A DNA stretch of 38,200 bases, taken from positions 1 to 38,200 of the IMG/VR virus record IMGVR_UViG_2703719355_000022, one strand, 5' to 3'. A program made the position numbers and the translations under genes. Shown here in pieces: positions 2,943 to 28,266 of the stretch (position 1 is its first letter; every line of letters starts with the position of its first letter). The stretch comes from a virus. Taxonomy: Duplodnaviria > Heunggongvirae > Uroviricota > Caudoviricetes. The notes under the pieces are model-generated. The model worked only from the letters and a program-made list of their open reading frames with translations, made no database searches and was not told the DNA's origin.

Positions 2943-2978
2943 GCGGCCTAAATCGACGTATAACGAGCTAAAACAGTT

Positions 2979-5095: not shown

Positions 5096-5105
5096 ATTAC
5101 CCCCT

Positions 5106-5453
5106 TTAGATGTATTGCATAAGATACCCAATAAATCTGAGTCCCTTAATGTAATAAGGTGCTGTGCCTATGCATACCGCTCGTGCATCACCAATACAAT
5201 TGAAGTTGTAAGGGTTAACTACATCAATCTCCTGCCCTACACGGAAGCGGTATTTAGGACGTTTAGCGAGTGTCGCAACACAAAACACTAACCCATTACC
5301 ATCATCGCGGATCATTTGCTTGAATTGTTTATGCTTTACTCTCTTCGCCTCGTAATCAAGTGTCATTGATTCAGGGCTAATGCCATTGATAAAAATACCG
5401 GAAAGCTGGTCGACCGGATAAGTAGGAAATTCAGTGAAAATATTTTTAGCCAT
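5106..5453 (-). CDS. hypothetical protein (115 aa)
   Basis: ORF with GGGGG ribosome-binding motif 5 nt upstream of the ATG; no recognised domain. Confidence 0.45.
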   Translation of the reverse strand: MAKNIFTEFPTYPVDQLSGIFINGISPESMTLDYEAKRVKHKQFKQMIRDDGNGLVFCVATLAKRPKYRFRVGQEIDVVNPYNFNCIGDARAVCIGTAPYYIKGLRFIGYLMQYI

Positions 5454-5491
5454 GTTATACCCCCATAAGATTCTATGAGGGTATTTATGGA

Positions 5492-6097
5492 TTAAACGAA
5501 GTTGATTTTACCCATGAAGTGCTTTTTCATCTTCTTCTGGATATTCTTCTTCATCGTTTTCTCATTATCTTTCCAACTACCCATGATGTTACTACGGTCT
5601 GTTTTCTTCAACACTGCAACAAGTCGCTTCCCTAGCTTTTTCTTGTTCTTCATGTCGGCTTTAACGGATGGATCGAGAAGCAGTATTTTACCAGTCTTAG
5701 ATTTTGTGGTTACATACTTCCCTATTTTCTTACCGTTTCTGAGTTGTGGAATGTTACCAAACTGGTTAGTTCGGTCATCAGTTACAGGAACAAATTTCTC
5801 AATATTATTACCACCTTCAAAGTAATATTTTAAGTATTTTTCCTGATTCTTCATGATGAAAACACTATGGTAAGACGTTTTACCGCTTGAGCGTATCCGG
5901 TTGTATGAATTGACCGCTTTCTGTGTGAACTTGGTCGGTCGATCTATCCTTGAATTGACTTTCTTCTGCAACTTTACCCGCTCATCTATGACCGCTAAAC
6001 CCAAATCCCTATGAAAGCTATTACTAGCTTTCTGTTTCCAACTCTTGATATCTTTTTTTACTTTATCAATATTGGATGTGATTATTGGATTAGCCAT
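5492..6097 (-). CDS. hypothetical lysine-rich basic protein (201 aa)
   Basis: ORF with AGGGGG ribosome-binding motif; very Lys-rich composition; function unknown. Confidence 0.45.
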   Translation of the reverse strand: MANPIITSNIDKVKKDIKSWKQKASNSFHRDLGLAVIDERVKLQKKVNSRIDRPTKFTQKAVNSYNRIRSSGKTSYHSVFIMKNQEKYLKYYFEGGNNIEKFVPVTDDRTNQFGNIPQLRNGKKIGKYVTTKSKTGKILLLDPSVKADMKNKKKLGKRLVAVLKKTDRSNIMGSWKDNEKTMKKNIQKKMKKHFMGKINFV

Positions 6098-6098
6098 G

Positions 6099-6269
6099 TT
6101 AGCCCCCTAATAACGAAAAGACCCCCGCCAGTGTCCTGAGTAATTGTTCATCCACGGTCATAGCCGGGAGTTCAAGCCCAAAGGACGTAAGCAGAGGTCT
6201 AATTGCTACGTTATAAGTGAGGGCGATAATCAAGAGATAACCAAAATATTTCTTAAGTTTATTCTTCAT
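6099..6269 (-). CDS. small membrane protein (56 aa), possibly lysis-associated
   Basis: Internal ATG at 6269 with AAGGGGTG upstream; N-terminal hydrophobic helix YFGYLLIIALTYNVAI; no lipobox. Confidence 0.35.
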   Translation of the reverse strand: MKNKLKKYFGYLLIIALTYNVAIRPLLTSFGLELPAMTVDEQLLRTLAGVFSLLGG

Positions 6270-6288
6270 ATATTCACCCCTTTTATTA

Positions 6289-6567
6289 TTATTTTTGTCT
6301 AAGTAAATCGATAACTTGGTCAAATTTGGCGTCCATCGCAACCACTTTCTTCTCTATACCGTGTAGTGTTTGTTCCATTTGGTAAACACGTTCAGCAATC
6401 TGAGTATGGTTATTCTGCATCGTCTCAAACTTCTGGTTTAACAATGCGTCGCTGGATTCCAATTTCGACAATCTATTTTCAGTTGCTAATTGATTTCGGT
6501 GAAGTCTCCAAAGACCACCACAAATTAAGGCGATAACACCGATACCGCCATATATAATTTCAGTCAT
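6289..6567 (-). CDS. membrane protein with one N-terminal TM helix and a coiled coil (holin- or i-spanin-like)
   Basis: N-terminal IIYGGIGVIALICGGLW followed by heptad-like charged region; position between tail tip gene and lysin. Confidence 0.4.
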   Translation of the reverse strand: MTEIIYGGIGVIALICGGLWRLHRNQLATENRLSKLESSDALLNQKFETMQNNHTQIAERVYQMEQTLHGIEKKVVAMDAKFDQVIDLLRQK

Positions 6568-6672
6568 TACGCCCCCGATATTTTTATATAGTTTAATGGC
6601 AAAATTATTTAGATAAAAATAATCCCACCTAACCCAAAAGAATTAAGTGGGATTAATTATTAAAATTAAATT

Positions 6673-9600: not shown

Positions 9601-10455
9601 GCTGGCGTTCGGATCACATGCACCGTTAGAGTGCAAATTCATCTGGCGAACTTGAGAACGTACTTTCAGGAATGAATCAACGTTAATGTTTTCAATTGGT
9701 ACTGATAAACCATATTTTTCATTTGTTAGGTAGTGGAAAATCTGGTCCACGCCGTTAGTGCTAGCCTCAATAGCATTGGTTTCAAGGTTACGAATCTTTA
9801 ATCCGCAAACGTCTACTGCTACCTGGCTATTTGGCTGGAGAATATCAACACCAGCAGCAAGAGATTTGTCATCACGACGTAACACAATACACATGGTTGC
9901 AATGCCGTTACCCTTGTAAGCATCGGTCCAGTCTGAGCCTAAATGAGTTTTTGCCAGTGACAATGCGGTGTTAGGATTCTTACCCGTGCGGAACTCGACT
10001 TCTAACACTTTACGGTATTCTTCTTTAATGTTGCCCTTATCGAGAATGCCATCACGGATCGTCATGTTTCGACCAATCAGCACGTTTTTATTATCGATGA
10101 ATAGTGCTTTGTAATGGTCAATTTCACCCTCGGCAATTGCGAAGATTTGCACTAACTTATTGTTTTCTTTCTTAGAAATTGCTTTGTAAACACAGATAGC
10201 ACCAGTTCGAGTAGTACCAAAAATAACTGGTAATACTGTTTTAGGATCGTTTGATGTTCCTAGTGTCACTGCGTTATCTGGGCTTTGTACCTTCGGTGTT
10301 TTCGGTGCGCCTACAGTGGAAGCAATCAAAGACAATGCACCAGCACCAATACCGATAGCAACAGCCGCTAATGTTGAAATTGCCGCCACGGAAGCAGCAG
10401 CCATCCCAGCCGACGCACCAGCAATAACCGCGCCGACCAATACTTCTACGCCCAT
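6673..10455 (-). CDS. tail tip central fiber / host specificity protein (lambda J-like), 1260 aa
   Basis: C-terminal ~150 aa match my recollection of lambda J (DDHKFDRQIVIPAVSFGG, VIDMPAGKGAVTLTFEV, ending GITVS); fibronectin-III-like central region; ATG overlaps the stop of the upstream gene. Confidence 0.85.
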   Translation of the reverse strand: MGVEVLVGAVIAGASAGMAAASVAAISTLAAVAIGIGAGALSLIASTVGAPKTPKVQSPDNAVTLGTSNDPKTVLPVIFGTTRTGAICVYKAISKKENNKLVQIFAIAEGEIDHYKALFIDNKNVLIGRNMTIRDGILDKGNIKEEYRKVLEVEFRTGKNPNTALSLAKTHLGSDWTDAYKGNGIATMCIVLRRDDKSLAAGVDILQPNSQVAVDVCGLKIRNLETNAIEASTNGVDQIFHYLTNEKYGLSVPIENINVDSFLKVRSQVRQMNLHSNGACDPNASFKENLTGLMQTFGGVMFESFGRITLKLDAPDIVKHTFNEDNIMMGKVNLKTGGTNGYFNTINAIYQEPSLDYSEQMLRYPADAENDATIRQDGRIIAKDVEYRFVKDENQIDKLASIERNKSRITQVINFTTTDAFSAEVWDVISVTHDELKLNNSLWRIISIERSIDSGIAGILSITATEYNSQIYTDLDYAAKPDNRPSGLPDSMTLQKPTNFRIKATGETIYGKNVTLTWDAPEDFNRYGFQIDYRVSGSPNWIKLGQTSQQIFNVNALAKDRSYDYRVCAFGIIARSDWVELINQNPTVTYELPTPVIRIKNQGSTPGTFEGNDLIIEWENQQQLDVEINGETNKFSDLFEAYIIKVTNKAGKSIQYRTRDPESWTYTLDMNQFNGLSRQLTVEVSAKGYNNSESAPARLVAINPQHKPMKGFSARGGFNSVFVSWADDVEHDYAGSIIQYATDNTFSDARAVSTNSVSHTSFDLADGDYYLRAAHYDIFGMDDAVWSEPYFMQMRSTISWDDQDKEALEDLIGLQDRLDETIADAIAQAGANADAKIDAMHKQITTETGKTVQASADTLKSLIATSEQASSTKIDQVKAELKGDIKSEVSASATTLKQAIATSEAASASKIDQVRVEMDGKIAGVNQEADVKIDALKGTINSKYNLAVNADGRVAGIHMSATNDPAQPTRIIFNADKIAVAPQNGSEVCPFGIEGNKVYLDNAMIRNAAIGTAQINDAAITTAKIGNAAINSAKIQDGAITNAKIVNGAIDNAKIGNYIQSSDWNGSTGWHINKNGSATFMNATVKGNITADSGTLNNVTINSSCVIKGMLEATQVKGDFVKVIGRKFPHRDVNVDNGYAGYPQGTVTVRVEDDHKFDRQIVIPAVSFGGLRAREGSNNNTYYDTCRLIVRKNGSELYNRAYGGNTGLYSGVIDMPAGKGAVTLTFEVQSSAINNWTPSTWISDLTVMVTKKATTGITVS

Positions 10456-10875
10456 AGATCACCCCCAAAGCGATAAGCATCGTTATAATCAATTTCGTAA
10501 ATCGGCTTGGTCGTCCAGATTCCATCTTCGGTAACGAGTCCATAGCCAGAATAATAAGGAGTCACGGAGTAATACTTACGGTTTCCTAATTTGTGATCGC
10601 GGATCAATAGGTCGCCGTCCTGTAAATCATCAGTAACTAATTTAAAATGTTCTTTGATAGGCTGGAGGATATTGGTATATCCGCTAAGTTCTTTACAGAC
10701 TTTCAAGCCTTCTTCTTTCGTTGAATATTTTTTATAAAGAGAATTATATAGGTCAGTGCCAGCGAGAATATCGATGATCTTACATGCAATTAAATTGCAA
10801 TCATTCTCGCCTTGAACGAACTCCTGACCTACTAATGAATTGATGTAATCAGTGATAAGCCTAGTTTTTAGCATG
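10446..10875 (-). CDS. tail tip assembly protein, NlpC/P60-like (lambda K-like), 143 aa
   Basis: Internal ATG at 10875 with GGAGG upstream (track N-terminus overlaps the neighbouring gene in another frame); Cys/His motifs ENDCNLIAC and GDLLIRDH; position in tail tip cluster. Confidence 0.45.
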
Positions 10876-14768: not shown

Positions 14769-15116
14769 TTAATCTGCGGTCGCCCTTAACTTATTGACTA
14801 ACGCCGGATCAAACATGCTCAACATTGCAGCTTTGCGATCTTCTTCTTTCTTACGCTCGATTTCTTCCAGTTCTTCTTTAGTCTTGAAGATTTTCTCTTC
14901 TTTGATTAACTGGAATTGGCTAGGCTTAATTTTCTTAGCCATTTCTTTGGTCATTCCCTGAGAAGTCATATAAAGGGAATATTGAAGCATAGCGTTTTGC
15001 ATGTCATGAAATGCGGGGGATTGTGGTTCTAAGTAAGTGTCGAAAATATGCAGTGACCAAAAAAGTGTTACTGGCATATTATCCATTTCATCTTTACTCA
15101 ATCCACGCCGCATCAT
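14769..15116 (-). CDS. hypothetical protein, possibly tail assembly chaperone partner (lambda T-like position), 115 aa
   Basis: Lies in the -1 frame relative to the upstream chaperone-like gene, starts 30 nt after its stop, no ribosome-binding motif; Lys/Glu-rich. Confidence 0.35.
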   Translation of the reverse strand: MMRRGLSKDEMDNMPVTLFWSLHIFDTYLEPQSPAFHDMQNAMLQYSLYMTSQGMTKEMAKKIKPSQFQLIKEEKIFKTKEELEEIERKKEEDRKAAMLSMFDPALVNKLRATAD

Positions 15117-15145
15117 CTGGCGGAAGTAGAAAGTTAAGAGCGGGT

Positions 15146-15454
15146 TTACTTTACCGATTCTTCTACCTTACTCGGTTCCGGCATCATAGAAGCCAGAGCA
15201 ACCAGACCGATCAATTGTGCTTTAACAGTTGTGTAAAGGGCTTTAACTTGTTTAATATTAGTGAAAACTGGTTTACCGCTTTCATCTTCGATACATTTCA
15301 GAATAGTACGTTCGTCGCGGTCTTCTTTATTGTTATTCTGAATGTGCTCGTTAAATTCCTGTACGCTCATCGGACGGGCATAAAATTTAAAGCCGTTGAT
15401 TTCCATTGCTTCGCGTTTCGGGGAAAGAGCTTTCATTAAATCGTTGATATTCAT
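15146..15454 (-). CDS. putative tail assembly chaperone (lambda G-like position), 102 aa
   Basis: Small acidic protein immediately upstream of the T-like ORF and tape measure gene; position-based. Confidence 0.4.
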   Translation of the reverse strand: MNINDLMKALSPKREAMEINGFKFYARPMSVQEFNEHIQNNNKEDRDERTILKCIEDESGKPVFTNIKQVKALYTTVKAQLIGLVALASMMPEPSKVEESVK

Positions 15455-15488: not shown

Positions 15489-15995
15489 TTATGTGATCTT
15501 TAAAGTCTGCTTAGTGCCAGTCTTCTTAATGTTGGTAAGGAAAGCAGCCGGAGGATTGCTTAACCAATAGTAATGAAAACCACTTTGCATACTGTTATAA
15601 GGAACAGTGACAGTAGCACCACCCAAATTAACGGTTATATTCCCCGCTCTACCGTTCTGGAGATATACAGCCATAGTAGGAGTACCGCCATTGAATTGAC
15701 CAACGATAACGCCAATCAGACGCCCTACGCCCACGTTTTCGGGGTTCTCCATAGATCCTTTACCGCGCATGTCAGTTACTGGATAGTTTGAAGCAGTCAC
15801 ACCCCAGTTATTACCCAATGAAGTAGACCACGCAGCAGTAGCTACAACCGTATCCATACCACGACCACACATCGCACTCATGTTAGCTGGGCGACTAACC
15901 TTTAATGCGTTCATTGCTGCGCTCATCCATCGTTGACCAGTTACAGAAACAGCAGATGACCCGACCCAGCCAGGCTTATTAACGACATTCGCCAT
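15489..15995 (-). CDS. hypothetical tail-module protein, 168 aa
   Basis: ORF with GGAGTAA ribosome-binding motif directly after a terminator; Gly/Ala/Ser-rich; function unknown. Confidence 0.4.
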   Translation of the reverse strand: MANVVNKPGWVGSSAVSVTGQRWMSAAMNALKVSRPANMSAMCGRGMDTVVATAAWSTSLGNNWGVTASNYPVTDMRGKGSMENPENVGVGRLIGVIVGQFNGGTPTMAVYLQNGRAGNITVNLGGATVTVPYNSMQSGFHYYWLSNPPAAFLTNIKKTGTKQTLKIT

Positions 15996-16009
15996 TTTGA
16001 TTACTCCAA

Positions 16010-16040
16010 TAAAAAAGCCCCACCATTAAGGCAGGGCTTA
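16010..16040 (-). terminator. rho-independent terminator (same family) after the tail tube gene and its extension
   Basis: AAGCCCTGCC-TTAATG-GTGGGGCTTTTTT on minus strand. Confidence 0.65.
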
Positions 16041-16043
16041 TAA

Positions 16044-16163
16044 TTAATCTTTAGCCTTGCGGCTTCGTTTAGCTGTGGCTTTCGCCGTAACTTCTTCTAC
16101 TTCTGGAATCACCACCGCTTCATGTTCCGGCTGTGGTTCCGGTTCGGGAAGTTCTTCGTTAGT
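16044..16163 (-). other. in-frame stop-free extension (39 codons) after the TGA of the tail tube gene; candidate readthrough domain
   Basis: Hand translation after TGA gives TNEELPEPEPQPEHEAVVIPEVEEVTAKATAKRSRKAKD then TAA at 16044-16046; shares 23-nt block with capsid extension. Confidence 0.45.
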
Positions 16164-16637
16164 TCATCCGGCAGTGAAGATTTGCTGTTTCAGCGGAGCA
16201 CCATCCACCGCGAAGGTAAACTCTTTGGTCACAACTTCTTCATCGCCACCGTTCATAGCAACTTTAGAAATGAAGCCGTTGAAAGCGGTGCGAATACCAG
16301 TCTGTTTTGCTGCGTCAACGTAATATTCTACTTTAATCTGAATACGAGTACCGTCTTCGGCAGCTTTGATCAGTTTTTCATGTACCGCATCGCCTGGGAT
16401 GTAGTTAACGGTCAGAGTCAGATCAGGAACGTTCAGCTTCCCTACCAGTTTACGGTTATACTGAGAAGAGAAGGATTTAACTTCTACAGTACCGCGCTCG
16501 ATACCAGTTTCAGGAAAACCAGCACACTCTTTAATTTCTTCGTATGCTTCATCAGCAAGATCGGTGTTAGTGGTATCAGCGTGATAGAACAGACTTACCA
16601 GACCACCAGTAAAAATATCTTTAAATTGTTGAGACAT
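16164..16637 (-). CDS. major tail tube protein candidate, 157 aa
   Basis: AAGGGG ribosome-binding motif; followed by a strong terminator as expected for an abundant structural gene; loose by-eye pattern similarity to the lambda V tube domain; ends in TGA. Confidence 0.45.
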   Translation of the reverse strand: MSQQFKDIFTGGLVSLFYHADTTNTDLADEAYEEIKECAGFPETGIERGTVEVKSFSSQYNRKLVGKLNVPDLTLTVNYIPGDAVHEKLIKAAEDGTRIQIKVEYYVDAAKQTGIRTAFNGFISKVAMNGGDEEVVTKEFTFAVDGAPLKQQIFTAG

Positions 16638-16693
16638 AGAATTACCCCTTAATTAAAATTGTTATTACGGGGGAACTAGTCCCCCGACTTTTA

Positions 16694-19600
16694 TTATTTA
16701 GTTGCTTTGAGTTCGGCAATCTCTTTAGTCAATGCTTCAATCTTAGCTTGATATTTGACGTCCATTTCCTGAATAGCTTTAATAATCAAGGCATTAACAG
16801 CAGAGTTAGAAATAGTCTTAATTGCTTCTGGATTTTCTGGATCTTCGGTGGATTGAATACCTACTGCTTCCGGCAATACTTCTTCCAGATCCTGAGCAAT
16901 AATACCGACTTCGCGTTTAATCACACTACGATCTTTAAGAGACTTAACTTTATCGTATGAGTAGACTTTCAGGGAGTTTACTTTCTCTAAAGCATCATCT
17001 TTTAATTCTTCCAGATTAACTTTCAGACGACGGTCCGAACGAATGTAAACATCGTTAAAGCTACCGTTACGACCTGCGGTAAAGTCACCAGCAGCGTTAA
17101 AGTCAAAGTTAGTATCATGAACATGGAGACGCACAAGAGCGTTACCGATAGTACCGCTAGGAACATGTACACCCATTGCTGCGATATGATATTTACCTTG
17201 ATGGGTTGCTTTCCATACGTTATGAGCGGAATCGGTTGATTGTTGACAGTCGACCTGAATACCAGAAGCACGATCACGCCAGCTAGCCCAACTACCACCA
17301 GCAACGCTACCACGAATAAGACCATTACCGCCACCGGATACAGTGCCCGTTTCAAGGTGAATCATCTTACCGCCGAATTTCCAGACTTCGGTTTGTTTCT
17401 CACCGCGCATACGCATAACGCCAGCATCATCGCAGTACAACAGACCCAATTCTAAGCCATTTGGATCTCTAAACCACAAATGCTTATTGCCACTGCGACG
17501 AAACTCAATATCAGCACCGTTAAGCGTGATATTACCGCCAGTGTGAATTGCTTTAGGTTTAACAGTACCGTTGATGGCAAACTCGATTAATTCAGTACCC
17601 GGACCGCCCGGTCGTTGTGTGTACCAGTGCCAACCGCTTTCGTCCGCACATTCGAATACTTGTTTACGAGCATCAGCACCCCACGCACGGATATTAAAGC
17701 TAGAAGTAGCTGTATTTTTGCCCCACGTTAATTTTCCTTCGGTAGTTAAATCCCCTCGGAAATGAGCAAGCAAACCACCAGATCCGTTACGTTCAGTGGT
17801 AAAGTGAGTTCCGCTAGTGTCCTGGAATTGCAAAACGTTATATCGGTTAGCGTTACTATTCCCCCAATGGTTAATCGTGAAAGAATCCATTGACTGATTC
17901 CCACCAGCAGAGAAAGTAAGCAATCCTTTTTCTAAGAATACGTTATTACTAAAGCGAGCAGCACGGCTATCTCTTTCAAGAATTAATGCACCTTCGTTAC
18001 CATCACCACCTAAAGTAACTTTACCATTTGTCAAATCGTAAATGAATGGTCGGTTTCCGTTCCACCCGCCCAATTTATCATTTTCGGCAGTAGAAAGAAG
18101 ATAAACTTTAGTGCCGTCATTACGCCAGAATGCACCATAATTACCGTAGATCATGCGGTAGGCGTCGCTATTCATTGAGATGAATTGAGCGTTAGTATAA
18201 ACTCGTTTTGTTCTACCAGTTGCAAGTTCGATCTGTCCGTCGATGTGGTGACGAATAGAAGTACCACCTACATCACTATACCATTCAAAAACGTTAGTAT
18301 CAGCATTACCATAACCGATCCACCCTTGACGGGTAATATCTCCAGTCCGATTATCTTGAAACGCAATATGGTTGGATTGACCAGCAGGACGCCGCAAGGT
18401 AATAACATTACTACCGCCACCTAACATCATTCGACCAGAAAGAATATTACCTTTATGAGTCCCAGCAATAGAGCTACTAGATTCAACGGTTAGAATCTCC
18501 TGAGCATCAGTGCTACCAGTAGCCAGACGATAACTGGAACCTTGAACCGTCTCATGCCAGATCATTTCATTATAGTTACTGCGGAATTTACGAATATATT
18601 TCCGACCAGTACCTTTATCATTACTTAGATGAACAATGTCATAGCTGTTTTGTGTGTTGTCGTCAAAACTCAACACACCACGTTTATTTTCTGTGTTAAA
18701 AAGAGTTACGTTGCGACCACCGATAACACCAACGGAAGGTTTAATTAACGTGGCTTCCGGCGTATCATAAACCGTCAAACTTACATAAACAGATTTCCCA
18801 TATTCGACAATAACGTTATCGGTATAACGCTGATATTTCACGTAGATATCATAGTTATCACCGGAAGTATTGACAGCAAATACCTCAAAATCTTTGTTTG
18901 TATTTCTACGGTATGCAATTACGTTAAGACCTTTAGGTCTATCGTTACCACTACGGAGAAGAATTTCTACTACATCAACTTGGTCATATGCCGTAACGTT
19001 GTAACCATTACCACCATGAATACGGAAAAACACACTACGCCCGTTTTGTGGAATTGTTGCGGTTGCCAATTTGAAATATGCAGATACGTTTTCGCTAGAA
19101 TTGGGAACAGACATAACGACGTTTTTAACAAACATCTTATCAACTTCGGCTTTGGTGTATGCACCAATCTCGCCAGGAGTCGGCTTATCACCTTCGTGAT
19201 ACATTTTATAGCTAAAGTCCTTCTGTCCTTCTCTATCAAAACCATAGGTTTCAACACGAGATCCACCAGACGCATAACGGAAAGTAAATCCGCGACCGTG
19301 CGCTTTACCGGCAGAATGAGGAACATTAAGAGTTAGATCTAAAAGACCATCTTGTTCATTAGTTCGGAAAGCACCAAAGTAATTAAGATCTCGTGATGTC
19401 TGGTCTTCCAGATAGTTAGCTGTCTTGCTTAACAGATACCCACCATGCTTAGTATTGGTATTCTTCTTGATGTAAAGAGCATCGTTGCTACCTTCAATAC
19501 CATCAATTCGACGGTTAGCGGCTGCAATCGCTGAATCAGTAGCTGATTTATTCTGGTCAACCTTGTTGTTAATGGCGGTGTGGTTGCTATTAACAGTGTT

Positions 19601-20305
19601 GGTTAAGTTGGTGATCTTCGTATCAGCATCGACCTTGTTATCGGATACAACCTTTTCGATTGCGGTCTTATTCGCCGCTACTGTCCCACTAAGGTTATTA
19701 ATTTTTGTGTCCGCGTCTTTCTTATTGGAAGTCACTGTAGCGGTTAAATTGCTAACGTTGGTGTTAGTGGTATTGACCTTGTTGTTTATTGCGGTATTGT
19801 TGTCCGCGACCGTCTTTGATAAAGCTGCGTGTTTACTATCGGCATCAGATTTATTCTGGTCGACCTTTGTGTTAATAGCGGTATGGTTGCTACTTACGGT
19901 CCCACTAAGATTATTAATTTTGGTGTCAGCATCGACCTTGTTATCACTAACCACTTTGGTCAAATTGCTAACGTTGGTATTAGTAGCATCAATGCGCTTA
20001 TTGGTCGCTGTATCTTTCGTGGTAATAGTCTGATTCAGTTCAGCTTTAGCACTAGCCAGATTATTAGCGGCCTCTTGTTTGTTGGAAGCAATAACACGGT
20101 CAGTGCTAGTTTTGTTATTGTCTACTTTCGTGTTTAAAGCATTATGACTTTCTGGGGAAACGCTGATTTGAACTACTGCGTTATTTTTGTCTTTGGTGTA
20201 AATTACATGGTCTGCCATCTGAATAGCGATTTCACCGACCTGTAATTGTTCTGGCGTTGGCTTTTTACCAGCCGTCTGTGTGCGTTTAAATTGGATAGAC
20301 TCCAT
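16694..20305 (-). CDS. tail fiber protein with C-terminal intramolecular chaperone (peptidase S74-like) domain, 1203 aa
   Basis: N-terminal tandem ~44-aa repeats (NTNVSNLT...DADTKINNLSGTV...); C-terminal segment DRRLKVNLEEL...VGIIAQDLEEVLPEAV resembles auto-cleaving chaperone domains of phage fibers. Confidence 0.8.
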   Translation of the reverse strand: MESIQFKRTQTAGKKPTPEQLQVGEIAIQMADHVIYTKDKNNAVVQISVSPESHNALNTKVDNNKTSTDRVIASNKQEAANNLASAKAELNQTITTKDTATNKRIDATNTNVSNLTKVVSDNKVDADTKINNLSGTVSSNHTAINTKVDQNKSDADSKHAALSKTVADNNTAINNKVNTTNTNVSNLTATVTSNKKDADTKINNLSGTVAANKTAIEKVVSDNKVDADTKITNLTNTVNSNHTAINNKVDQNKSATDSAIAAANRRIDGIEGSNDALYIKKNTNTKHGGYLLSKTANYLEDQTSRDLNYFGAFRTNEQDGLLDLTLNVPHSAGKAHGRGFTFRYASGGSRVETYGFDREGQKDFSYKMYHEGDKPTPGEIGAYTKAEVDKMFVKNVVMSVPNSSENVSAYFKLATATIPQNGRSVFFRIHGGNGYNVTAYDQVDVVEILLRSGNDRPKGLNVIAYRRNTNKDFEVFAVNTSGDNYDIYVKYQRYTDNVIVEYGKSVYVSLTVYDTPEATLIKPSVGVIGGRNVTLFNTENKRGVLSFDDNTQNSYDIVHLSNDKGTGRKYIRKFRSNYNEMIWHETVQGSSYRLATGSTDAQEILTVESSSSIAGTHKGNILSGRMMLGGGSNVITLRRPAGQSNHIAFQDNRTGDITRQGWIGYGNADTNVFEWYSDVGGTSIRHHIDGQIELATGRTKRVYTNAQFISMNSDAYRMIYGNYGAFWRNDGTKVYLLSTAENDKLGGWNGNRPFIYDLTNGKVTLGGDGNEGALILERDSRAARFSNNVFLEKGLLTFSAGGNQSMDSFTINHWGNSNANRYNVLQFQDTSGTHFTTERNGSGGLLAHFRGDLTTEGKLTWGKNTATSSFNIRAWGADARKQVFECADESGWHWYTQRPGGPGTELIEFAINGTVKPKAIHTGGNITLNGADIEFRRSGNKHLWFRDPNGLELGLLYCDDAGVMRMRGEKQTEVWKFGGKMIHLETGTVSGGGNGLIRGSVAGGSWASWRDRASGIQVDCQQSTDSAHNVWKATHQGKYHIAAMGVHVPSGTIGNALVRLHVHDTNFDFNAAGDFTAGRNGSFNDVYIRSDRRLKVNLEELKDDALEKVNSLKVYSYDKVKSLKDRSVIKREVGIIAQDLEEVLPEAVGIQSTEDPENPEAIKTISNSAVNALIIKAIQEMDVKYQAKIEALTKEIAELKATK

Positions 20306-20379
20306 TGAATCACCTCACTATAAAACAGGAATAAGGGAGGCGTTAACCTCCCCGCGTCATGTTTTATTTAGGAAGTGAA

Positions 20380-21213
20380 TCAATACTCCCCGAAATCGAC
20401 TCTATCAGTTTTAGCCACTGCCCCGATCTCGGCGGGAGTTGGCTTTTCATGTTCACTAAAAACCTTCACCCATCGAGATTGACCACCTTTCTGGATAGTT
20501 CGGACACGCAAACGAGGATCACCCGCAGTGGTACATGTTAGTTGCCAACCACCGTCTTCATTTGGCTGTAAATGCAATAGTGATGTATCGGATGAGAACG
20601 GGTTGCTACCAGCGGTTCCCTTGTAGGTTACGAAACGGTTTCCTGCTAATGCCTCGCTATCAATACCCCCTGTAAACGGGCTAATTCCAGCGCCTACGCC
20701 AAAGTCCCCTTGTCGAATGAGTTTTCCCTCGGTCGCTATACCCCTTGCTAGAATCCCGCCATCTGGTTCAAGTTTAAATTCCAGTGTTACAGCTTTGTTA
20801 TCTGCGCCACGGGTTTTGTGACTAGTGACATAAGCGTCATAGATGACATAGTAACCAGTGTTAGCAGCACTATAGCCAGAGTTCACAACATAGAACATAC
20901 GGAAGCGTAAAGGTGTTTTATCCTCTACCGCTTTCATCAACATTGCTTGATGTTCATCGTCAAGAACACGGTTTAATGTGAGTGTTGTCGGTTCCAGTCT
21001 ACGATAACCAGCAAGTTTCCCCGTAGCGTCCTGATCGTACTCTTCCAGAGTTTCAATCTCTGTGGATTCGGTTAGCGTAGGGAATGCTGCGACGTTCTCA
21101 ATAGAACTAAAACTAGGATCGAAAAAGTCGACCTGATTGTCTATCTGGTTAGAGATCGACACTTCAACATGTGATCCAGTGAAAATATCTAAGTTATCAT
21201 GTGTAATATTCAT
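20380..21213 (-). CDS. virion structural protein with fiber-like C-terminal motif, 277 aa
   Basis: Located between head-tail genes and the fiber gene; C-terminal HEKPTPAEIGAVAKTD motif also occurs twice in the fiber protein. Confidence 0.4.
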   Translation of the reverse strand: MNITHDNLDIFTGSHVEVSISNQIDNQVDFFDPSFSSIENVAAFPTLTESTEIETLEEYDQDATGKLAGYRRLEPTTLTLNRVLDDEHQAMLMKAVEDKTPLRFRMFYVVNSGYSAANTGYYVIYDAYVTSHKTRGADNKAVTLEFKLEPDGGILARGIATEGKLIRQGDFGVGAGISPFTGGIDSEALAGNRFVTYKGTAGSNPFSSDTSLLHLQPNEDGGWQLTCTTAGDPRLRVRTIQKGGQSRWVKVFSEHEKPTPAEIGAVAKTDRVDFGEY

Positions 21214-21222
21214 TATTACCCC

Positions 21223-21651
21223 TTAAAAACGCGCTAGATAAGAAAATTTAAGGCTAAGTGTCCCAACGATACCCCCATCACTAGAATCATCGTCATAATC
21301 GGTATTAGAAGCTACTGGAGTGATATCTGAAATAGAGAAGCCCAAATCTTTAAATCGTGGGTTATCCGGCTGAATCTGGATTATCTGGCAAATACCCTCA
21401 TGGATTTTTGTTTCATGAATCTGAGAATATAATTGCATTTCGATAACGCATTCAGCTTGCATTGCATTACCACCACGAACACGCGTATAAGTTTCATTCA
21501 TGCCAGTAATCCAACAAACCACGTCATCACTAAAGCCTTGCTGAGTTTGTTCTACGTTTAAAGCCAGACCTAGATCTTGTTCGATAATATCCTGTAAAGC
21601 ACGTTTAATCTTAAGACGTGGCATATTATTAACGGTAGCGAGCATGTGCAC
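21223..21651 (-). CDS. putative head-tail joining / tail completion protein, 142 aa
   Basis: Position downstream of capsid gene; overlaps upstream ORF by 23 nt; no motif confirmed. Confidence 0.35.
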   Translation of the reverse strand: MHMLATVNNMPRLKIKRALQDIIEQDLGLALNVEQTQQGFSDDVVCWITGMNETYTRVRGGNAMQAECVIEMQLYSQIHETKIHEGICQIIQIQPDNPRFKDLGFSISDITPVASNTDYDDDSSDGGIVGTLSLKFSYLARF

Positions 21652-21919
21652 CCCCTGCTAAAGTGATAAAGCAATCACTGGTATTGTCACCATTGCGCTT
21701 AATGTATTGAACTTTAAAACGCTGATTTTCTACAATGACAATATCACCCTGCTTTAAATCTCCCTCACGACAGAATAAGAATTCTGTTTCTGTCATTACC
21801 CCTTGTTCGTCGGTAGTAGTAATTTCATGGTAAGCACGAATTGATTTACCACCTTCCACCATAAAAACAGGAGCACTCTTAAACATTCGATTTAATTGTG
21901 ATTCTGATAATTTGAACAT
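21629..21919 (-). CDS. putative head-tail connector protein, 96 aa
   Basis: First gene after capsid gene terminator; position-based. Confidence 0.35.
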   Translation of the reverse strand: MFKLSESQLNRMFKSAPVFMVEGGKSIRAYHEITTTDEQGVMTETEFLFCREGDLKQGDIVIVENQRFKVQYIKRNGDNTSDCFITLAGGAHARYR

Positions 21920-21949
21920 AGTTACCCCCTTTTATGGAGTATTTACATA

Positions 21950-21980
21950 CAAAAAAGCCCCACCGATAAAGGCAGGGCTA
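21950..21980 (-). terminator. rho-independent terminator (same family) after the capsid gene and its extension
   Basis: TAGCCCTGCC-TTTATC-GGTGGGGCTTTTTT on minus strand. Confidence 0.65.
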
Positions 21981-21984
21981 ATTA

Positions 21985-22119
21985 TTATTTTGCTTTCGGT
22001 GGACGACCCACCTTTTTAGCTGTGGCTTTCGCCTTAACCGTCTGGGATTCTTCTTCCTGTGGTGGAATCGGATTTTCTTCCCCCAAATCGGGGGAAGGTT
22101 CAGAAGGTTCTACGTTATT
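21985..22119 (-). other. in-frame stop-free extension (44 codons) after the TGA of the capsid gene; candidate readthrough domain
   Basis: Hand translation after TGA gives NNVEPSEPSPDLGEENPIPPQEEESQTVKAKATAKKVGRPPKAK then TAA at 21985-21987. Confidence 0.45.
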
Positions 22120-24192
22120 TCAATCGCTTTTTTTCTGGACTACGGTCAGTGCGCTATGGTCCATAACAGCCCAATCCAAATCAGCCCATACACGGAAGTA
22201 CAGGTTGCCAGCCGCGCGACCTGTGGTGTCGTCGCAATCCAGTTCCAGCGATCCGAAGTCCGCAATTGCCAGAGAGCTAAAGTCACCAAACAGCATCGTA
22301 TCCTGAGCAATTACACCAGAGCCATAGATCGGACGGTTAACCAGTTTATCACCTTCTACCAGGAAGCCCGGAACGTTAGCGGCTTTCAGTTGCGCTGAAA
22401 GTTCAGCTTTAATAACACCACGAGTAGCAAATGCCAGATCAGATTCGTTAAAACCTTTGTCTGTTTGTTCAGCAACCAGTTTCAGGAACTCGGCATAGGT
22501 CCAATCAATCTGTTTAACTTTGCCAGCGTCGGTCAGGATCTTAGTCAGACCATCACGAGCGTTAGTGTTAGCAGCATTGGACAGGATCGCTTTTTCCAGA
22601 GCGATAGCACTGTGTTTCAGCATGTGCTCACCAACGATAGCACCGATGTTAGGCAGAGTGATAGCAGCCTGACGAGTTACAGGAACAATTCCATTGAATG
22701 TCTTAAGAGTCATCGGCTGTGCTGCAAACTTGATAGTACCTTCACCAGCGGATTGACCTTCTGCAACAAAACCGAAGTTTTCCAGATTGCTGGAAGTCAG
22801 AGACGGCAGAGATACCGGACCAGTTGCGTTAATGGTACGCACGCCCAATTTGCCCAGAATAGAACGTTCCATGATCATATCAACGAAGCAATCATGGCGG
22901 ATTTCTTCACCAACTACAGGTTTCAGAGATTCCATGTTCTGGCTAGCACGCAGAGCGGACGCCGGAATGAATACGGAGTTAGAACGCTGTGCACGACCAC
23001 GCGCTGCGGCTTTACGTGCTTCTTCCTGAGAATATTCAGCTTCTGCGCCAGTCAGTGCTTTACCCTCTGCGATTGCACGTACAGCTTTATTAAGATCGAA
23101 ACGAGATTCCAGAGTTTTAATGGTATCGGTCATGGTAATTTTTCCTTTAACAAAAGTTTTAGATTCGGTAGTATTTAGTGCGCGTGCTTTTTCTTTAAAA
23201 TTTTCAATAGTCACGGCACTATCTTTAATTGCGGCTTCAATTACGTCTTCGGAGATATTTAGATGTTTTCCGATAGCACGAATTTCGGCGGTATCTTCGC
23301 GAGAACGTTCAAACGGTTTTTCTTCGTCTTCAATCTTTTCTTCTTCGACTGGTTCGGATGTATTTTCCGTTTCGTCGTTCTCGTCTGTATCTTTATTTAG
23401 TTCTTCTGTTTCTTCCGGTTTAATTTCTTCTTCCGGTTCATCTTCGGAACGTTCTTCTTTTTCTTCTGGCGTTACTTCTTGCGGGTTTTCCACATCTTCG
23501 CCACTGTCAGCACTATTTCCAGAATCGGAATCAATTTCTTCATTTTCCTGTTCCTCTTTCTCTTCTTCGGAACGTTTTTCTTCATCTTCCGGTTTAATTT
23601 CTTCTACCGGAGTGTCTTTAATTTCGTCTTCCACTTGTTCACCCTCCAAAACAATCATTTCGTTGTCTGTATTTAGAGAGCGTCCAACACCCGCGTTAAA
23701 TGGATCTGCGGCACACGTTACAAGACTGCATTCGAAAGGTTGCCAGCGTGTAACGTAATAGATCCCTTTGTTAAAATCGGCTTTGCCATCAAGAACGTTA
23801 TAACCGACGCTAACTTGTGAAAGTGTTCCCTCTTTTACCTTCTCAAAGCATTCATTAGCCAGTTGGCCTACTTTGGAGAATTGGACAAGGCAACGACCTA
23901 CACGGTCTTCGTCAATACGAGCGGAGCCAGGAACAATCTTGCCGATATGAAGGTCCAGATTGTGATTAAACAGAAGACTTGCGTTAGTCTCGTTTAAAAC
24001 GGATAGATCAACCGCTGATTCATCGTGTACGAGAATCTCTTTTAATTCGACTTGCTCGCCGTCCTGATTCATGTAATAACGTGTATAAGGAGCCTCGCTT
24101 GAGAAAGCCAATTCAATAATTCGTTCGTCTTTTTCTTCGATAAAATCAGGGGTATCTACCGCAACACTACGACGGAATTGTTTTGTTGTCAT
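22120..24192 (-). CDS. prohead protease / acidic scaffold-like linker / HK97-fold major capsid protein fusion, 690 aa
   Basis: N-terminal ~170 aa resemble HK97-type prohead protease (LSQVSVGYNVLDG...WQPFECSLVTCAADPFNA); ~150-aa Glu-rich linker with internal repeats; C-terminal ~350 aa with HK97-fold capsid-like motifs (GNLYFRVWADLDWAV); ends in TGA. Confidence 0.8.
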   Translation of the reverse strand: MTTKQFRRSVAVDTPDFIEEKDERIIELAFSSEAPYTRYYMNQDGEQVELKEILVHDESAVDLSVLNETNASLLFNHNLDLHIGKIVPGSARIDEDRVGRCLVQFSKVGQLANECFEKVKEGTLSQVSVGYNVLDGKADFNKGIYYVTRWQPFECSLVTCAADPFNAGVGRSLNTDNEMIVLEGEQVEDEIKDTPVEEIKPEDEEKRSEEEKEEQENEEIDSDSGNSADSGEDVENPQEVTPEEKEERSEDEPEEEIKPEETEELNKDTDENDETENTSEPVEEEKIEDEEKPFERSREDTAEIRAIGKHLNISEDVIEAAIKDSAVTIENFKEKARALNTTESKTFVKGKITMTDTIKTLESRFDLNKAVRAIAEGKALTGAEAEYSQEEARKAAARGRAQRSNSVFIPASALRASQNMESLKPVVGEEIRHDCFVDMIMERSILGKLGVRTINATGPVSLPSLTSSNLENFGFVAEGQSAGEGTIKFAAQPMTLKTFNGIVPVTRQAAITLPNIGAIVGEHMLKHSAIALEKAILSNAANTNARDGLTKILTDAGKVKQIDWTYAEFLKLVAEQTDKGFNESDLAFATRGVIKAELSAQLKAANVPGFLVEGDKLVNRPIYGSGVIAQDTMLFGDFSSLAIADFGSLELDCDDTTGRAAGNLYFRVWADLDWAVMDHSALTVVQKKSD

Positions 24193-24235: not shown

Positions 24236-25759
24236 TTATTCATTTTGAGTATCAGGCGATTTTTCTTTTTCAGTCTCACCCTCACTCACTACGCATGTAT
24301 TTAGCATGTGTTTTTCTGCCTCAATTTCTTTAAAGACCTGAGACGGATCTTGACCCATTTCCATAATGACCTGAGCTTTAGACTTCAATCCGCTTTCTAT
24401 TAACAGAACTTCACTCTGAATATCTTTGATAGGTTCGATAGACGTAACGCGCGGCCTAATAATTGTCGTTGCATCCAAAATAGAATCGATCTGCGTCATG
24501 CGAACATTGATTTTTGAGTTAATTACCGCGTGACGTAAAAACGCCTCAAACAATGGAAGAATAACAGTATCAACTAAGCGATCTTGATGCGTCTTGAAGC
24601 GAGCGGATTCAATATTATGACCGAATTTTGCTGATGAGTAGTTAATAGAACTTGTATCTCCTGTAAGAGCTTGTTTAAAGCTAGACAGACCCATAGAAAT
24701 AGAAGTCAGCATTGCTTCATTGAATTTTTCGAAATCATCGCCGCCTTGAGTTGATTGTACCGTTTTAACGTCTTGCCCCGGTTCCAGTATATTGATAGTA
24801 CCTGGTTCGAAGTCAGTGATCATTGTTGGCGGTTGATAGTTTTCCGTGTCATCTTCACCAACATCAAATGAATCTTGATTTTCTTTATCGCTTGTGATAA
24901 AGGCCATACTACTTGCGTGCACGCGCTTACCGATTATTACAGTCTCGCGGAACGCTTCAAGATGAGCTATATCTTTGATTATTGGCAAGAAATCAGTAAT
25001 ACCACGTAATGCGTCGGCTGTACCAGGGATAAAGTAATGCAGCACTCTTTCCGCTGGGATTCGTACACGTTCGCCAGTAAAGGATTGAGTAAACAGGTCA
25101 CGACGCCTAAACCAATATGCAACGGGCTTTTCATCTTCATATTCGATGCCAGCGTAAACGACATTACCGTTATCTAAGGTGCGCTGATCTGACCAATCGA
25201 CACAATCCGCACCATAAATTGATACTTGCAGATCCTTACCATCTTCATGGAGTACCAGAAACGCATCACCACCCATCACGCGCTCTTTTTCCATCAACTT
25301 TAAGCATTCAAGGAAGTTAATCTTTCCGATGCGCGAGAATCGTTTCTGAGAGCTAGCCCAACGCCAAAAAGCATTCTCAATAGCGGTGTTAGTGGTTGCG
25401 TCCAGCTTTTCCCCTTTCATAACGAAGGTTCGAGGCTGTAAGCCAGTACCTACCACGGAATCAATAACGTGTTGGCAATAACGGGAGCCAATAGAGGTGT
25501 TTAACGCAAGATAACGGCCTTGATTGTATAGACGTGATGCGGACCCCTTAATCGTGCTGTTAATGCTGCCAGTGATGACATTACGCGCCATACTTCCTTC
25601 AATACGGTCGCTTTCAACCAATCCCAAAGAGCGTTTATGTAAGTCTTTGGTAAATTCTTCAATCTTGCGATCTACAAATAATTTGCGGTGCTGGCGAATA
25701 CCGATTTTCTTAACCGGATTCACGGGCATATCTTTTTTGCGTTTGAAAAAATTAAACAT
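24236..25759 (-). CDS. portal protein (putative), 507 aa
   Basis: Size and position between terminase and protease-capsid genes; no motif confirmed by eye. Confidence 0.6.
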   Translation of the reverse strand: MFNFFKRKKDMPVNPVKKIGIRQHRKLFVDRKIEEFTKDLHKRSLGLVESDRIEGSMARNVITGSINSTIKGSASRLYNQGRYLALNTSIGSRYCQHVIDSVVGTGLQPRTFVMKGEKLDATTNTAIENAFWRWASSQKRFSRIGKINFLECLKLMEKERVMGGDAFLVLHEDGKDLQVSIYGADCVDWSDQRTLDNGNVVYAGIEYEDEKPVAYWFRRRDLFTQSFTGERVRIPAERVLHYFIPGTADALRGITDFLPIIKDIAHLEAFRETVIIGKRVHASSMAFITSDKENQDSFDVGEDDTENYQPPTMITDFEPGTINILEPGQDVKTVQSTQGGDDFEKFNEAMLTSISMGLSSFKQALTGDTSSINYSSAKFGHNIESARFKTHQDRLVDTVILPLFEAFLRHAVINSKINVRMTQIDSILDATTIIRPRVTSIEPIKDIQSEVLLIESGLKSKAQVIMEMGQDPSQVFKEIEAEKHMLNTCVVSEGETEKEKSPDTQNE

Positions 25760-26337: not shown

Positions 26338-28266
26338 TTAAAAGTTATTTACCCACCCACCACGACGCACAGGACGCGCCATAGGACGACGATTAGGTTT
26401 GTGATGAGTGATTGGCTTAGTTTCTTCGATTTGCTCGTTAGAATGTGATTTAGGAGCTTCTACGGTTGCTTCTGGTTCACGATTCAGCTTTTCTTTCATT
26501 GCAATGAGCTTATCCCATGACATTTTTGAAAGAACATAGCGAGAAGCCGCATAGCTATAAACCAGACAGTCGAGCGCCTCGTTTCGTGTCGCACCTGGAT
26601 TTTTTACCCAACGTGTTCCAGTAACAGTACGCTTGATGGATTCACTCAAAAGCTGATCGAGATAATCATCAGGAACGGTTTCTGATATCTCTAAACCAAT
26701 ATGAGGGTTTTCTTTCAAGTTGCGTGTTAATAGCTCACGAATAGCCGTTTTACCCACGTTAACGCCCAACATAAGCAACTCATGACCGCCCGTGGTAGTT
26801 GGTTTCACTGGAATGATTGGAGCAGTACCAGATGAACTACCTTTGATTGCGTGTAAGTTCTTCCACTTACCACCGCAAATACGGTATCCGGCTTGAGTGA
26901 ATCGACCGTTCGATGTATCAAGGAAGCTGGCGAGCATAGGAACACGATCACCCGATACAGTAGTAAATTTGGTTTTATGGAAGTTGATTAATCTGTCCCA
27001 TACAGGAGATTCATATCGTTCACAGTTATGGTCGTAAAAGCTGCGATGATCCAGAATATAAATCTTATCCTTTGCCACGCCCATGATCGTAGTTTCTGCG
27101 CGATCTAATTGCTGGTCAGTACCCGCACACAAGAAAATCACGTCATCAGGGATATTCTCGATAGAAACATCTGTTTTAAGTTCTTCCAGTTCGTTTACTT
27201 CTACTGCCGTTTCCTGATCATCGTATACAGTGCCGAGAACGGTATTATAAAAACTTTGTAAATCAAATGTTTGCCACGCTTGAGAGAAGTCAGAGACACA
27301 TGCTTTGATAGAGCTAAAAGGTGAATATAGACGGCTGATCCAGAATCCTGCTACATCACTTTCACGGGTAGCTCTCCATTCACCTTGTGCAACCGCTCTA
27401 ATGCGATCCCCTTCTGACCAATCAGTCTGGCAATGAGGACACACATAACGGGCGCTTTCAACACATGGCAGATTGCGACCATCCTGATTTTTCCACTCGA
27501 ACTTAACATTTTCCCACTCGATCACCTGGTGTTTCCCGCAATGCGGACAAGGAACAAAGAATTTACGCTGATCACTTGATAACCATTGTTGATTAATCGG
27601 TCCCAGCTTAGTGGTCGGGGTACTGGAAACGATAATTCTTGCTTCATCCCCGAAAGTGGTTGCGCGGTTAGCCGCAAGTGCAATCGGATCGCCCTCTTCA
27701 CTAGCACTGGCAGCATCACATTCATCGAGCAGAATCAACGGGCTGGTTTTTGAACGCAAGGTTGATGGGCTAGTAAGCGATACCATGTAAAGAAAATGAT
27801 TAGTCTTAAGCTGAATCTGACTATTGTTATTAACAGCGTTGCGATCATTCTTGTCGGTGATTGCTTCGCGTAATGCCGGACATGCTTCAATGGCTGGTCG
27901 GATCTTCCCGCTTAGGTACTGAGCGGTTTCCTTCGTGGTTGCTTGGCCTATGATGATATTGCTGGGATCGTTAGCTATCTTATTGAATAATATACCATTA
28001 AGGATGGAAGTTTTGCCGATCTGGGCACTTGTACAAAAAATGTACTTTTTCTTATTCTCTAAGAAAGGAGCATCAATCATGCCTTTCTGAAAGCTGGTTA
28101 ATTTAATTTTAGCGCCAGCTTGTGGTCCATCCACTAGGATCATGTTTTCCTCGCACCATTCAGATGGTAAACGCTTAATTGGCGGTCGGATATGTTTTGA
28201 TACTTCGTTAAAAATTCGCTTGAGTTTAAATTTATTTGAGAGTTTTTTCACCGTGATTATCCTCAT
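26338..28266 (-). CDS. terminase large subunit, lambda gpA family, 642 aa
   Basis: Motifs [29 protein letters not shown] and C-terminal RNEALDC recall lambda gpA; Walker A-like GKTS; first gene of the minus-strand operon. Confidence 0.9.

Follow-up and report, generated by a model that had tools for sequence, protein, structure and literature searches.

The double-stranded DNA (dsDNA) tailed phage HK97 provides the best-known arrangement of a prohead protease next to a major capsid protein. Its genes run in the order portal, protease, capsid; the S78-family protease gp4 is encoded by a separate gene and used in sub-stoichiometric amounts, the propeptide of the capsid protein gp5 is removed, and gp5 ends at a normal stop codon followed directly by a terminator. 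In other phages, exemplified by R4C and further fusions of the phrog_617 type, protease and capsid are joined in one chain. Beyond the ends of structural genes, long forms of capsid and tail proteins are made by frameshifting in Lactobacillus phage A2 and in Listeria phages (Atkins et al. 2016, PMC5009743). Here we describe a 690-amino-acid (aa) open reading frame (ORF) in an Escherichia coli prophage, IMG/VR record IMGVR_UViG_2703719355_000022, of which the whole 38,200-nucleotide (nt) stretch analysed is called the window. The gene shares the S78 protease family, the aligned His and Ser residues, a presumed propeptide and the gene order with HK97; it differs in that the protease is fused upstream of the capsid through a 119-residue acidic spacer, and in that the gene ends in TGA-A followed by an in-frame tail. 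Its domain order is identical to that of R4C and the other phrog_617-type fusions, with which it shares only 27-36% identity, and the R4C linker is rich in Pro, Ala and Thr, in contrast to the repeat-bearing, Glu-rich linker of the query. Our analysis suggests, with good confidence, that the ORF encodes a self-processing head precursor of a widespread and already catalogued family, comprising an S78 protease, an acidic spacer of variable length, a helical propeptide and an HK97-fold capsid domain. The second finding, held with only moderate confidence, matters more than the fusion: the TGA-A and its tail appear to form a portable recoding cassette, comprising UGA-A, 28-44 in-frame codons, a stop and a terminator, which is carried by the capsid and tail-tube genes of an E. 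coli/Salmonella prophage family. The features of the capsid gene are as follows.

22120-24192, minus strand: the whole ORF, comprising protease, linker, helical module and major capsid precursor, and including the TGA stop at 22120-22122
23677-24150, minus strand: prohead serine protease domain of MEROPS/Pfam S78 type, aa 15-172, with candidate catalytic residues H77, S128 and E154
23320-23676, minus strand: disordered acidic linker with internal repeats, aa 173-291, where the predicted local distance difference test score (pLDDT) lies below 50
22927-23319, minus strand: conserved helical module, aa 292-422, which probably serves as scaffold or propeptide and would be lost at maturation
22123-22926, minus strand: HK97-fold major capsid domain, aa ~423-690, its mature N-terminus placed by homology to R4C
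23131-23147, minus strand: candidate internal ribosome-binding site AAGGA (23143-23147) with the ATG of Met354 (23131-23133), a prediction

The ORF is intact from its ATG through 690 codons and encodes a single 76 kDa chain of four parts. Pfam detects Peptidase_S78 at aa 59-162 (39.6 bits, cut-off 21) and Phage_capsid at aa 433-686 (50.2 bits, cut-off 24.2), and the PHROG family phrog_617 ('major head protein', profile length 626) aligns end to end, aa 12-687 against positions 15-623, with an E-value of 2.3e-68. An AlphaFold2 model built on 74 diverse homologues likewise predicts confident protease, helical and capsid domains joined by low-confidence linkers. Together these matches confirm the observation, made in an original prediction from the sequence, that one ORF joins a protease, a linker and a capsid. 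That prediction recognized three segments; a conserved helical module at aa 292-422 had been overlooked. Its interpretation is partly supported, being correct in outline, and neither of the outcomes that it named as refuting occurred: profile searches do recover a protease, and the ORF is not broken by a frameshift.

The N-terminal part had been described as similar to an HK97-type prohead protease, and both the profile match and the predicted structure bear this out: the S78 match lies above its cut-off, and aa 15-172 are modeled as a confident globular domain with an assemblin-like protease fold, as in herpesviruses and T4 gp21. When aligned with HK97 gp4 by hhalign, the domain yields a probability of 85.8% (E 5e-6), and the profile-profile alignment pairs H77 with gp4 H65, S128 with S114 and E154 with E141. 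We take H65 and S114 to be the catalytic residues of gp4.

The C-terminal domain follows a low-confidence stretch at aa 418-430 and is confidently modeled to residue 690. It combines its above-threshold profile match with a predicted HK97 fold comprising A and P domains, E-loop and N-arm, in agreement with the capsid assignment first proposed. Its only sequence relative in the PDB is 8gta_A, the capsid protein of the T=7 virion of Dinoroseobacter phage R4C. That chain contains 268 residues, exactly 362-629 of the 629-residue fused R4C precursor, and aligns from residue 427 of the query. Since the R4C virion capsid holds only the last 268 residues of its precursor, processing is expected in the 690-aa protein too, and by homology the mature capsid protein would begin near residue 423.

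Between the spacer and the capsid lies the helical module, in which AlphaFold2 predicts six helices at aa 298-397 (pLDDT 80-95). It features the conserved motifs ERSxEDxxEIRxI and FDLNxAxRxIAxG, which are also present in R4C: AERRRAEEIGAI in R4C corresponds to FERSREDTAEIRAI in the query, and YSLVNAVRVL to FDLNKAVRAI. The module has no Pfam family. As it lies upstream of the mature N-terminus, and the equivalent stretch is absent from the 8GTA chain, it is presumably removed. It probably acts as a scaffold, to judge from its position and secondary structure, and it may work like the delta domain of HK97 gp5 while being no detectable member of that family.

The resulting model of a self-processing precursor is directly supported by the domains and their predicted folds, the conservation of catalytic residues, the size of the family, and an R4C virion capsid that comprises the C-terminal domain only. 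The sequence of steps, the positions of cleavage and the role of the helical module as a scaffold are inferred. In the proposed mechanism, the capsid and helical parts would assemble a procapsid on the neighboring lambda-type portal, with the protease and spacer inside. Crowding would then activate the protease through H77, S128 and E154, and the protease would cut off approximately 420 N-terminal residues, so that the mature shell protein would comprise ~268 residues and begin near residue 423. The cleaved fragments would exit, and DNA would be packaged. An Arg-Ser cleavage motif was considered, as RS occurs seven times against 2.1 expected, among them one in the conserved GVGRS that closes the protease domain and one in the ERS of the helical module. 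It is not claimed here because the R4C chain starts after Ala and HK97 gp5 is cut after Lys.

Several observations weigh against the model. No homology between the helical module and the gp5 delta domain could be detected (hhalign probability 0.4%), and its putative scaffold role is deduced from position and secondary structure. The 268-residue 8GTA chain could reflect the modeled part of the protein instead of a true N-terminus. A protease on every subunit amounts to 415 copies per T=7 shell, far above its use in HK97, and a candidate start at Met354 suggests that the real stoichiometry may differ. Finally, the closest sequenced phage isolate is only 36% identical, and the tail cassette was found in no phage record.

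The acidic linker reported in the original prediction is confirmed; its proposed length of ~150 residues is not, since the region with pLDDT below 50 covers about 119 aa. Across these ~117-119 aa the composition is 38% Glu and 11% Asp (49% Glu+Asp), with a net charge of -46. The repeats described there are also real. Two copies of EEIKPE were located, one at aa 197 (nt 23587-23604) and the other at aa 255 (nt 23413-23430). They fall within a set of three 43-nt direct repeats at 23387-23429, 23438-23480 and 23561-23603, which are 67-79% identical and have an exact 19-nt core in common. Tandem Repeats Finder reported no repeat at these sites because the copies are dispersed, not tandem. Natural alleles reveal the behavior of these sequences: three homologues that are 98-99% identical to the query elsewhere carry in-frame deletions of 41 aa between two E-(K/E)-R-S-E units (P0002), 58 aa between two EEIKP units (P0003) and 74 aa between two EEEK units (P0004), and every end point falls exactly within a repeated unit. 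Judging by these sequences, the linker repeats are recombinogenic and drive changes in spacer length. The deletions are natural and in frame, and the spacer therefore tolerates large changes in length.

It had further been proposed that the fusion enforces a 1:1 ratio of protease to capsid. This does not follow, as ribosomes could start at the conserved AAGGA-ATG of Met354 and produce a precursor that lacks the protease. In this alternative, which rivals the equal stoichiometry and leaves the fusion itself untouched, a nested gene starting at Met354 would yield a 337-aa capsid precursor with a short propeptide besides the 690-aa protein; most shell subunits would be free of the protease, which would be brought in by a minority of full-length chains. 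We regard this as a tentative possibility, somewhat short of even. Met354 stands where a low-confidence loop (aa 343-353) gives way to a helix, its ATG is preceded at 7-9 nt by an AGGA/AAGGA motif, and the string AAAGGAAA is invariant in E. coli and Salmonella relatives while neighboring codons vary. A second lineage with other amino-acid contexts (IKDSK, NKEKN, NKEQI) keeps AAGGA 7 nt before ATG, and ~20 of the closest 50%-cluster representatives place a Met after a Lys/Asn/Glu-rich (purine-rich) stretch, 3-12 residues before [FY][DS]L. Against this, the more distant relatives, half of the family, show I-G-L/M-T at this position and no conserved Met, and R4C lacks one too; AAGGA may merely reflect Lys-Gly or Lys-Glu/Asp codons; and the upstream start is itself furnished with a strong ribosome-binding site, AAGGTGATCT-ATG. 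Precedents for nested protease/scaffold genes have been described (bioRxiv 10.64898/2026.09.13.751334). The likeness to lambda C/Nu3, herpes simplex virus 1 (HSV-1) UL26/UL26.5 and HFTV1 gp17/gp17.5 is that a single frame encodes a protease-bearing long form and an abundant short form; here, by contrast, the shared C-terminal part would be the capsid protein and not a separate scaffold, and the start is predicted.

The original prediction mentioned a readthrough tail in passing. Comparison among related prophages supports this element, which is the unusual feature of the gene. The capsid gene ends in TGA-A, beyond which the frame stays open for a further 44 codons, and a homologous arrangement recurs ~5.9 kb away at the tail-tube gene. 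The two sites comprise the following features.

21982-22122, minus strand: candidate readthrough extension, comprising the putatively leaky stop TGA-A (22120-22122), 44 in-frame codons (21988-22119: NNVEPSEPSPDLGEENPIPPQEEESQTVKAKATAKKVGRPPKAK) and TAATAA (21982-21987)
22077-22097, minus strand: 8-base-pair G+C-rich hairpin, 22 nt after the UGA, a possible readthrough stimulator that is not universal
21956-21979, minus strand: strong intrinsic terminator, three bases past TAATAA, which follows the tail end rather than the TGA
16015-16637, minus strand: second cassette, homologous to that of the capsid gene and comprising a lambda-like tail-tube gene (16164-16637, 157 aa), tail and terminator
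16044-16166, minus strand: tail-tube stop TGA-A (16164-16166), 39 in-frame codons (16047-16163: TNEELPEPEPQPEHEAVVIPEVEEVTAKATAKRSRKAKD) and TAA (16044-16046)
16015-16039, minus strand: homologous terminator after the tail-tube tail

A lone open stretch of 44 codons is unremarkable by itself, and the case for the tail is thus carried by comparative data. The capsid-type TGA-A tail was found at 25 related loci from E. coli, Salmonella and metagenomes. Their capsids fall to 41% identity with the query and have at least five different C-termini, all of which join the tail in frame. The tail-tube gene (phrog_158, E 2e-21; PF16460) has the TGA-A arrangement in six other contigs, giving seven loci with the window, and both cassette copies occur together on contigs L023, L031 and SKEV01000268.1. 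In all 32 tail-bearing loci (25 capsid and 7 tail-tube) the stop is TGA followed by A, whereas all seven tail-less relatives (five capsid and two tail-tube genes) end in TAA with a terminator directly after. This usage stands out within the window, where 31 of 36 likely genes stop at TAA, four at TGA and one at TAG: two of the four TGA stops are TGA-A and belong to the capsid and tail-tube genes, which encode the two most abundant structural proteins, and the other two are TGA-T with in-frame extensions of 3 and 5 codons.

The tails themselves vary as coding sequence would. They occur in nine lengths, and the eight gap runs in their alignment (54, 6, 27, 9, 3, 3, 6 and 3 nt) are each divisible by three. 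All 25 unique tails keep frame 0 open, whereas frames 1 and 2 contain 1-7 stops each. Among tail-tube tails, synonymous and amino-acid variants stand at 9:8 in frame 0 against 2:14 and 2:13 in the other frames, and for the most diverged tail-tube pair the ratios are 7:3 in frame 0 and 1:9 in each of the others. The lean to frame 0 is only weak in capsid tails (19:34 against 13:40 and 9:39). No start codon is conserved within the tails compared. The encoded peptide is an acidic, proline-rich spacer with a basic tip, VTAKATAK-R/K-G/Q-R-K-x-K, and its three C-terminal tips (KVGRPPKAK, RGRKPKE and KQRKTKE) are all basic. Capsid copies end in a doubled stop, either TAATAA or TGATAA.

The link between TGA-A and the tail, the frame-keeping insertions and deletions, and the synonymous excess in frame 0 thus back the readthrough tail and suggest that programmed UGA readthrough is likely, though unproven. 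We favor, on balance, a model in which the UGA-A of the capsid gene is read through at low frequency, adding a 44-residue tail to a minority of subunits, with the tail-tube gene behaving likewise through its homologous cassette. UGA followed by A is reportedly the classic leaky context in E. coli, a view attributed to Engelberg-Kulka in 1981. The tryptophan transfer RNA (tRNA-Trp) would read the UGA-A, giving the junction ...VVQKKSD-W-NNVEPSEPSPDLGEENPIPPQEEESQTVK in the capsid and ...IFTAG-W-TNEELPEPEPQPEHEAVVIPEVEEVTAK in the tail tube, so that the same flexible appendage would be placed on a small fraction of both head and tail subunits. The T7 10B protein, encapsulin C-termini and the C-terminal domain of lambda gpV face outward, and by analogy the appendage would probably be displayed on the outer surface of the particle. 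If readthrough proceeded at a few per cent, as in Q-beta, ~4-20 of 415 head subunits would be extended.

The alternative is that the ~130 nt after the TGA are not usefully translated, and constitute a conserved 3' untranslated or terminator cassette with an incidentally open frame, e.g. a module-boundary sequence that promotes mosaic recombination or a small RNA derived from the 3' untranslated region. We consider this unlikely, if by no means negligible, as a number of observations do count against readthrough. Between prophages with capsid genes too diverged for blastn to detect, the DNA of the cassette is still 88-95% identical, with the mosaic joint at the stop codon, and both copies keep an 18-nt core, GTTAMGGCGAAAGCCACA, unchanged down to the third codon positions. 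They also have the same terminator in common. The frame-0 synonymous excess is weak in the capsid tails, and the hairpin that follows the UGA in capsid copies is missing from the tail-tube copy. No protein among 5.8 billion joins the tail by a sense codon, the only match with a sense codon in place of the TGA being a mis-called 33-aa ORF inside the tail. Against an untranslated element, the nine lengths and eight gaps all respect the triplet, frame 0 stays open throughout, TGA-A and TAA separate completely between tail-bearing and tail-less loci, and TGA-A falls on the two most abundant structural proteins in a window that prefers TAA. The synonymous excess of the tail-tube tails, the persistent basicity of three different tips, the in-frame joining of at least five capsid C-termini and the absence of any Rfam match argue in the same direction.

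Other routes to an extended protein were considered alongside UGA readthrough. The A7 run that precedes the stop (CAG AAA AAA AGC GAT TGA) was rejected as a frameshift site by inspection of the sequence: the -1 and +1 frames both stop within 5 codons, and so only in-frame readthrough gives a long extension. A selenocysteine insertion sequence (SECIS) or other known RNA element was not supported either, with no Rfam match at E<=1 across window positions 15900-22300 and a tail-tube hairpin that is not significant. Nor was a phage-encoded suppressor tRNA, as the window contains no tRNA genes. A universal stimulating hairpin was likewise rejected: z-scores after capsid-type UGAs are -2.3, -3.5 and -2.0, and the structure after the tail-tube UGA is not significant at -0.56, leaving the hairpin as a possible enhancer. 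For the basic tip, an AT-hook (KRGRKPK, VGRPPK) was set aside as one of the three variants, KQRKTKE, lacks the GRP core.

The surroundings of the capsid tail provide several further observations. Four tail-less relatives with a TAA stop (L007, L008, L062 and L063) have short basic C-termini of their own (AAAAKSK, ETRVKK, AAAVKAK and APAGRSK), which resemble the tail tip, as if a basic end were wanted on every subunit or on few. A 68-aa protein recorded in NCBI, JGI and Logan (P0272) ends ...VEAKATAKRGRKAQREGN, a close likeness of the tail tip, although the match is weak (E about 7). In some Salmonella prophages of this family, a gene of 345-348 aa (L007 3686-4723; L062 9201-10247) with a DUF723 match, a weak CapR-like match and its own upstream region sits between the capsid terminator and the head-tail genes, the same module boundary that is occupied by the tail cassette in the E. 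coli phages. This gene has the appearance of a moron. Gene callers end both the capsid and tail-tube genes at the TGA and leave ~130 nt apparently empty, which serves as a warning for annotation.

Returning to the fusion, a very improbable alternative to an active, self-processing precursor is that the protease domain is a degenerate relic, now internal scaffold mass, with any cleavage performed by another enzyme. The S78 Pfam score is modest at 39.6 bits, as might suit such a relic. However, an alignment of 74 fusions with 24-73% identity to the query shows no variation at E52, L54, H77, G84, S128, Y131 or E154, and H77, S128 and E154 among them are those aligned with the HK97 gp4 catalytic residues. 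Moreover, Pfam and PHROG scans reveal no separate protease gene in the head module to perform the cleavage. On the minus strand this module comprises, in order, the terminase, a 165-aa protein resembling head-tail-joining proteins, the portal, the 690-aa ORF, proteins of 96 and 142 aa, and the tail genes.

26338-28266, minus strand: lambda gpA-type large terminase of the head module
24236-25759, minus strand: lambda-family portal, directly before the 690-aa ORF in the head module

The gene had been expected to be unusually complex, an expectation that the size of its family overturns. A search of a 5.8-billion-protein collection, from which the best 120 homologues were listed, returned mostly Salmonella enterica and E. 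coli proteins named 'phage major capsid protein'. All 120 are 616-694 aa, so no frameshift splits the frame, and 119 are annotated with both domains, the exception being P0030 with Peptidase_S78 only. An exhaustive HMMER scan of 1.84 billion representatives found 1640 50%-identity cluster representatives at E<=1e-10, and of the top 150 nearly all are 565-700 aa and matched at both ends. A further PHROG family, phrog_4523, bears the annotation 'major head and protease protein', genome reports on actinophages routinely use the label 'capsid and protease fusion', and the same fusion occurs in the isolated phages Halomonas phiHAP-1, Vibrio VP882, R4C, Achromobacter Mano and FoX2. The query is thus an ordinary member of a known family, and the prophage itself is present in 55-57 of 5426 complete E. 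coli genomes; the strains PE15, ETEC1703 and 39EVA match this locus at 96.4%, 95.7% and 95.0% identity. That the long ORF is an assembly or sequencing artefact joining separate protease and capsid genes can practically be dismissed, as the architecture is uninterrupted in complete E. coli chromosomes annotated by the Prokaryotic Genome Annotation Pipeline (PGAP), in hundreds of Salmonella genomes and in isolated phages. Alone, the fusion adds little beyond one more uncharacterised enterobacterial self-processing head precursor. What it does offer are natural experiments, in the form of in-frame linker deletions and a candidate nested start that bears on protease dosage.

Two individual records merit description. 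In E. coli HCP5S3_I4 (hit H53, NZ_CM149869.1 2468144-2471752) the capsid-region match is split in two, with an IS2 element listed under the match, and this prophage copy is probably defective. The closest relative in the phage database, Escherichia phage DCP80 (L011, PQ671644.1, record 1734-10859; 36% and 44% identity), is a 141-kb record classified under Straboviridae/Tevenvirinae, in which a module comprising a lambda-type terminase, a portal, a fused protease-capsid and a tail tube is annotated as hypothetical proteins; chimerism or mis-assembly of this record is possible. The fused capsid gene of DCP80 differs from the query in ending with TAA, with a second stop two codons on, and a separate 28-codon ORF in another frame starts beside the capsid stop, before the terminator.

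The tail operon of the window contains further genes on the minus strand. A 277-aa protein (20380-21213) is a second tail-tube-like gene product, with phrog_158 matched in its first 154 residues; its extra C-terminal half ends in a KPTPAEIGA motif that is present in the tail fibre as well, and it may anchor a side fibre. The distal subunit of a T-even-type long tail fibre is encoded at 16694-20305, and over ~2.7 kb this gene is 80% identical at the nucleotide level to gp37 of the Krischvirus (RB49-like) phages Phi1 and ECD7. Positions 15489-15995 encode a gp38-like adhesin (Gp38_N, phrog_1121). The gp37-like and gp38-like genes are embedded in a siphovirus-type tail operon with the tail-tube gene between them, which looks as if virulent T-even phages and a temperate prophage had exchanged a module for host range. 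At 14769-15454, a 102-aa tail assembly chaperone (Phage_TAC_13) and a 115-aa protein with a weak Phage_tail_T match form a pair upstream of the 839-aa tape measure gene, the usual place of the G/GT -1 frameshift.

A close parallel to the proposed tail is found outside tailed phages. The A1 protein of Q-beta is made by UGA readthrough and resembles the proposed capsid extension in that a leaky UGA ends the coat gene and yields, at low frequency, a minor extended coat variant. The systems differ in that Q-beta is a single-stranded RNA levivirus with a 196-residue folded extension, whereas a dsDNA tailed prophage here would extend two structural genes by a probably disordered tail of 28-44 residues. 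Atkins et al. 2016 (PMC5009743) mentions no readthrough example from tailed phages, and the literature searched yielded no relevant precedent for capsid or tail readthrough in this group; the TGA-A cassette looks like a way of using stop-codon readthrough that has not been described before in tailed phages. If the model is correct, recoding signals can move as a module between structural genes, and a new kind of minor virion appendage exists in prophages common in clinical and livestock E. coli and Salmonella. Within tailed phages the nearest likenesses are T7 10A/10B, Listeria PSA, A118 and A500, Lactobacillus A2 and SPP1 gp17.1*, in which a minority of capsid or tail subunits are also extended by recoding at the end of the gene. 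In T7, the Listeria phages, A2 and SPP1 this is achieved by frameshifting, either -1 or +1, and the added segments often have a fold (immunoglobulin-like); here it would be achieved by in-frame stop readthrough. Programmed stop-codon readthrough in a dsDNA tailed phage would thus do the job performed by frameshifting in T7, PSA, A118 and A2.

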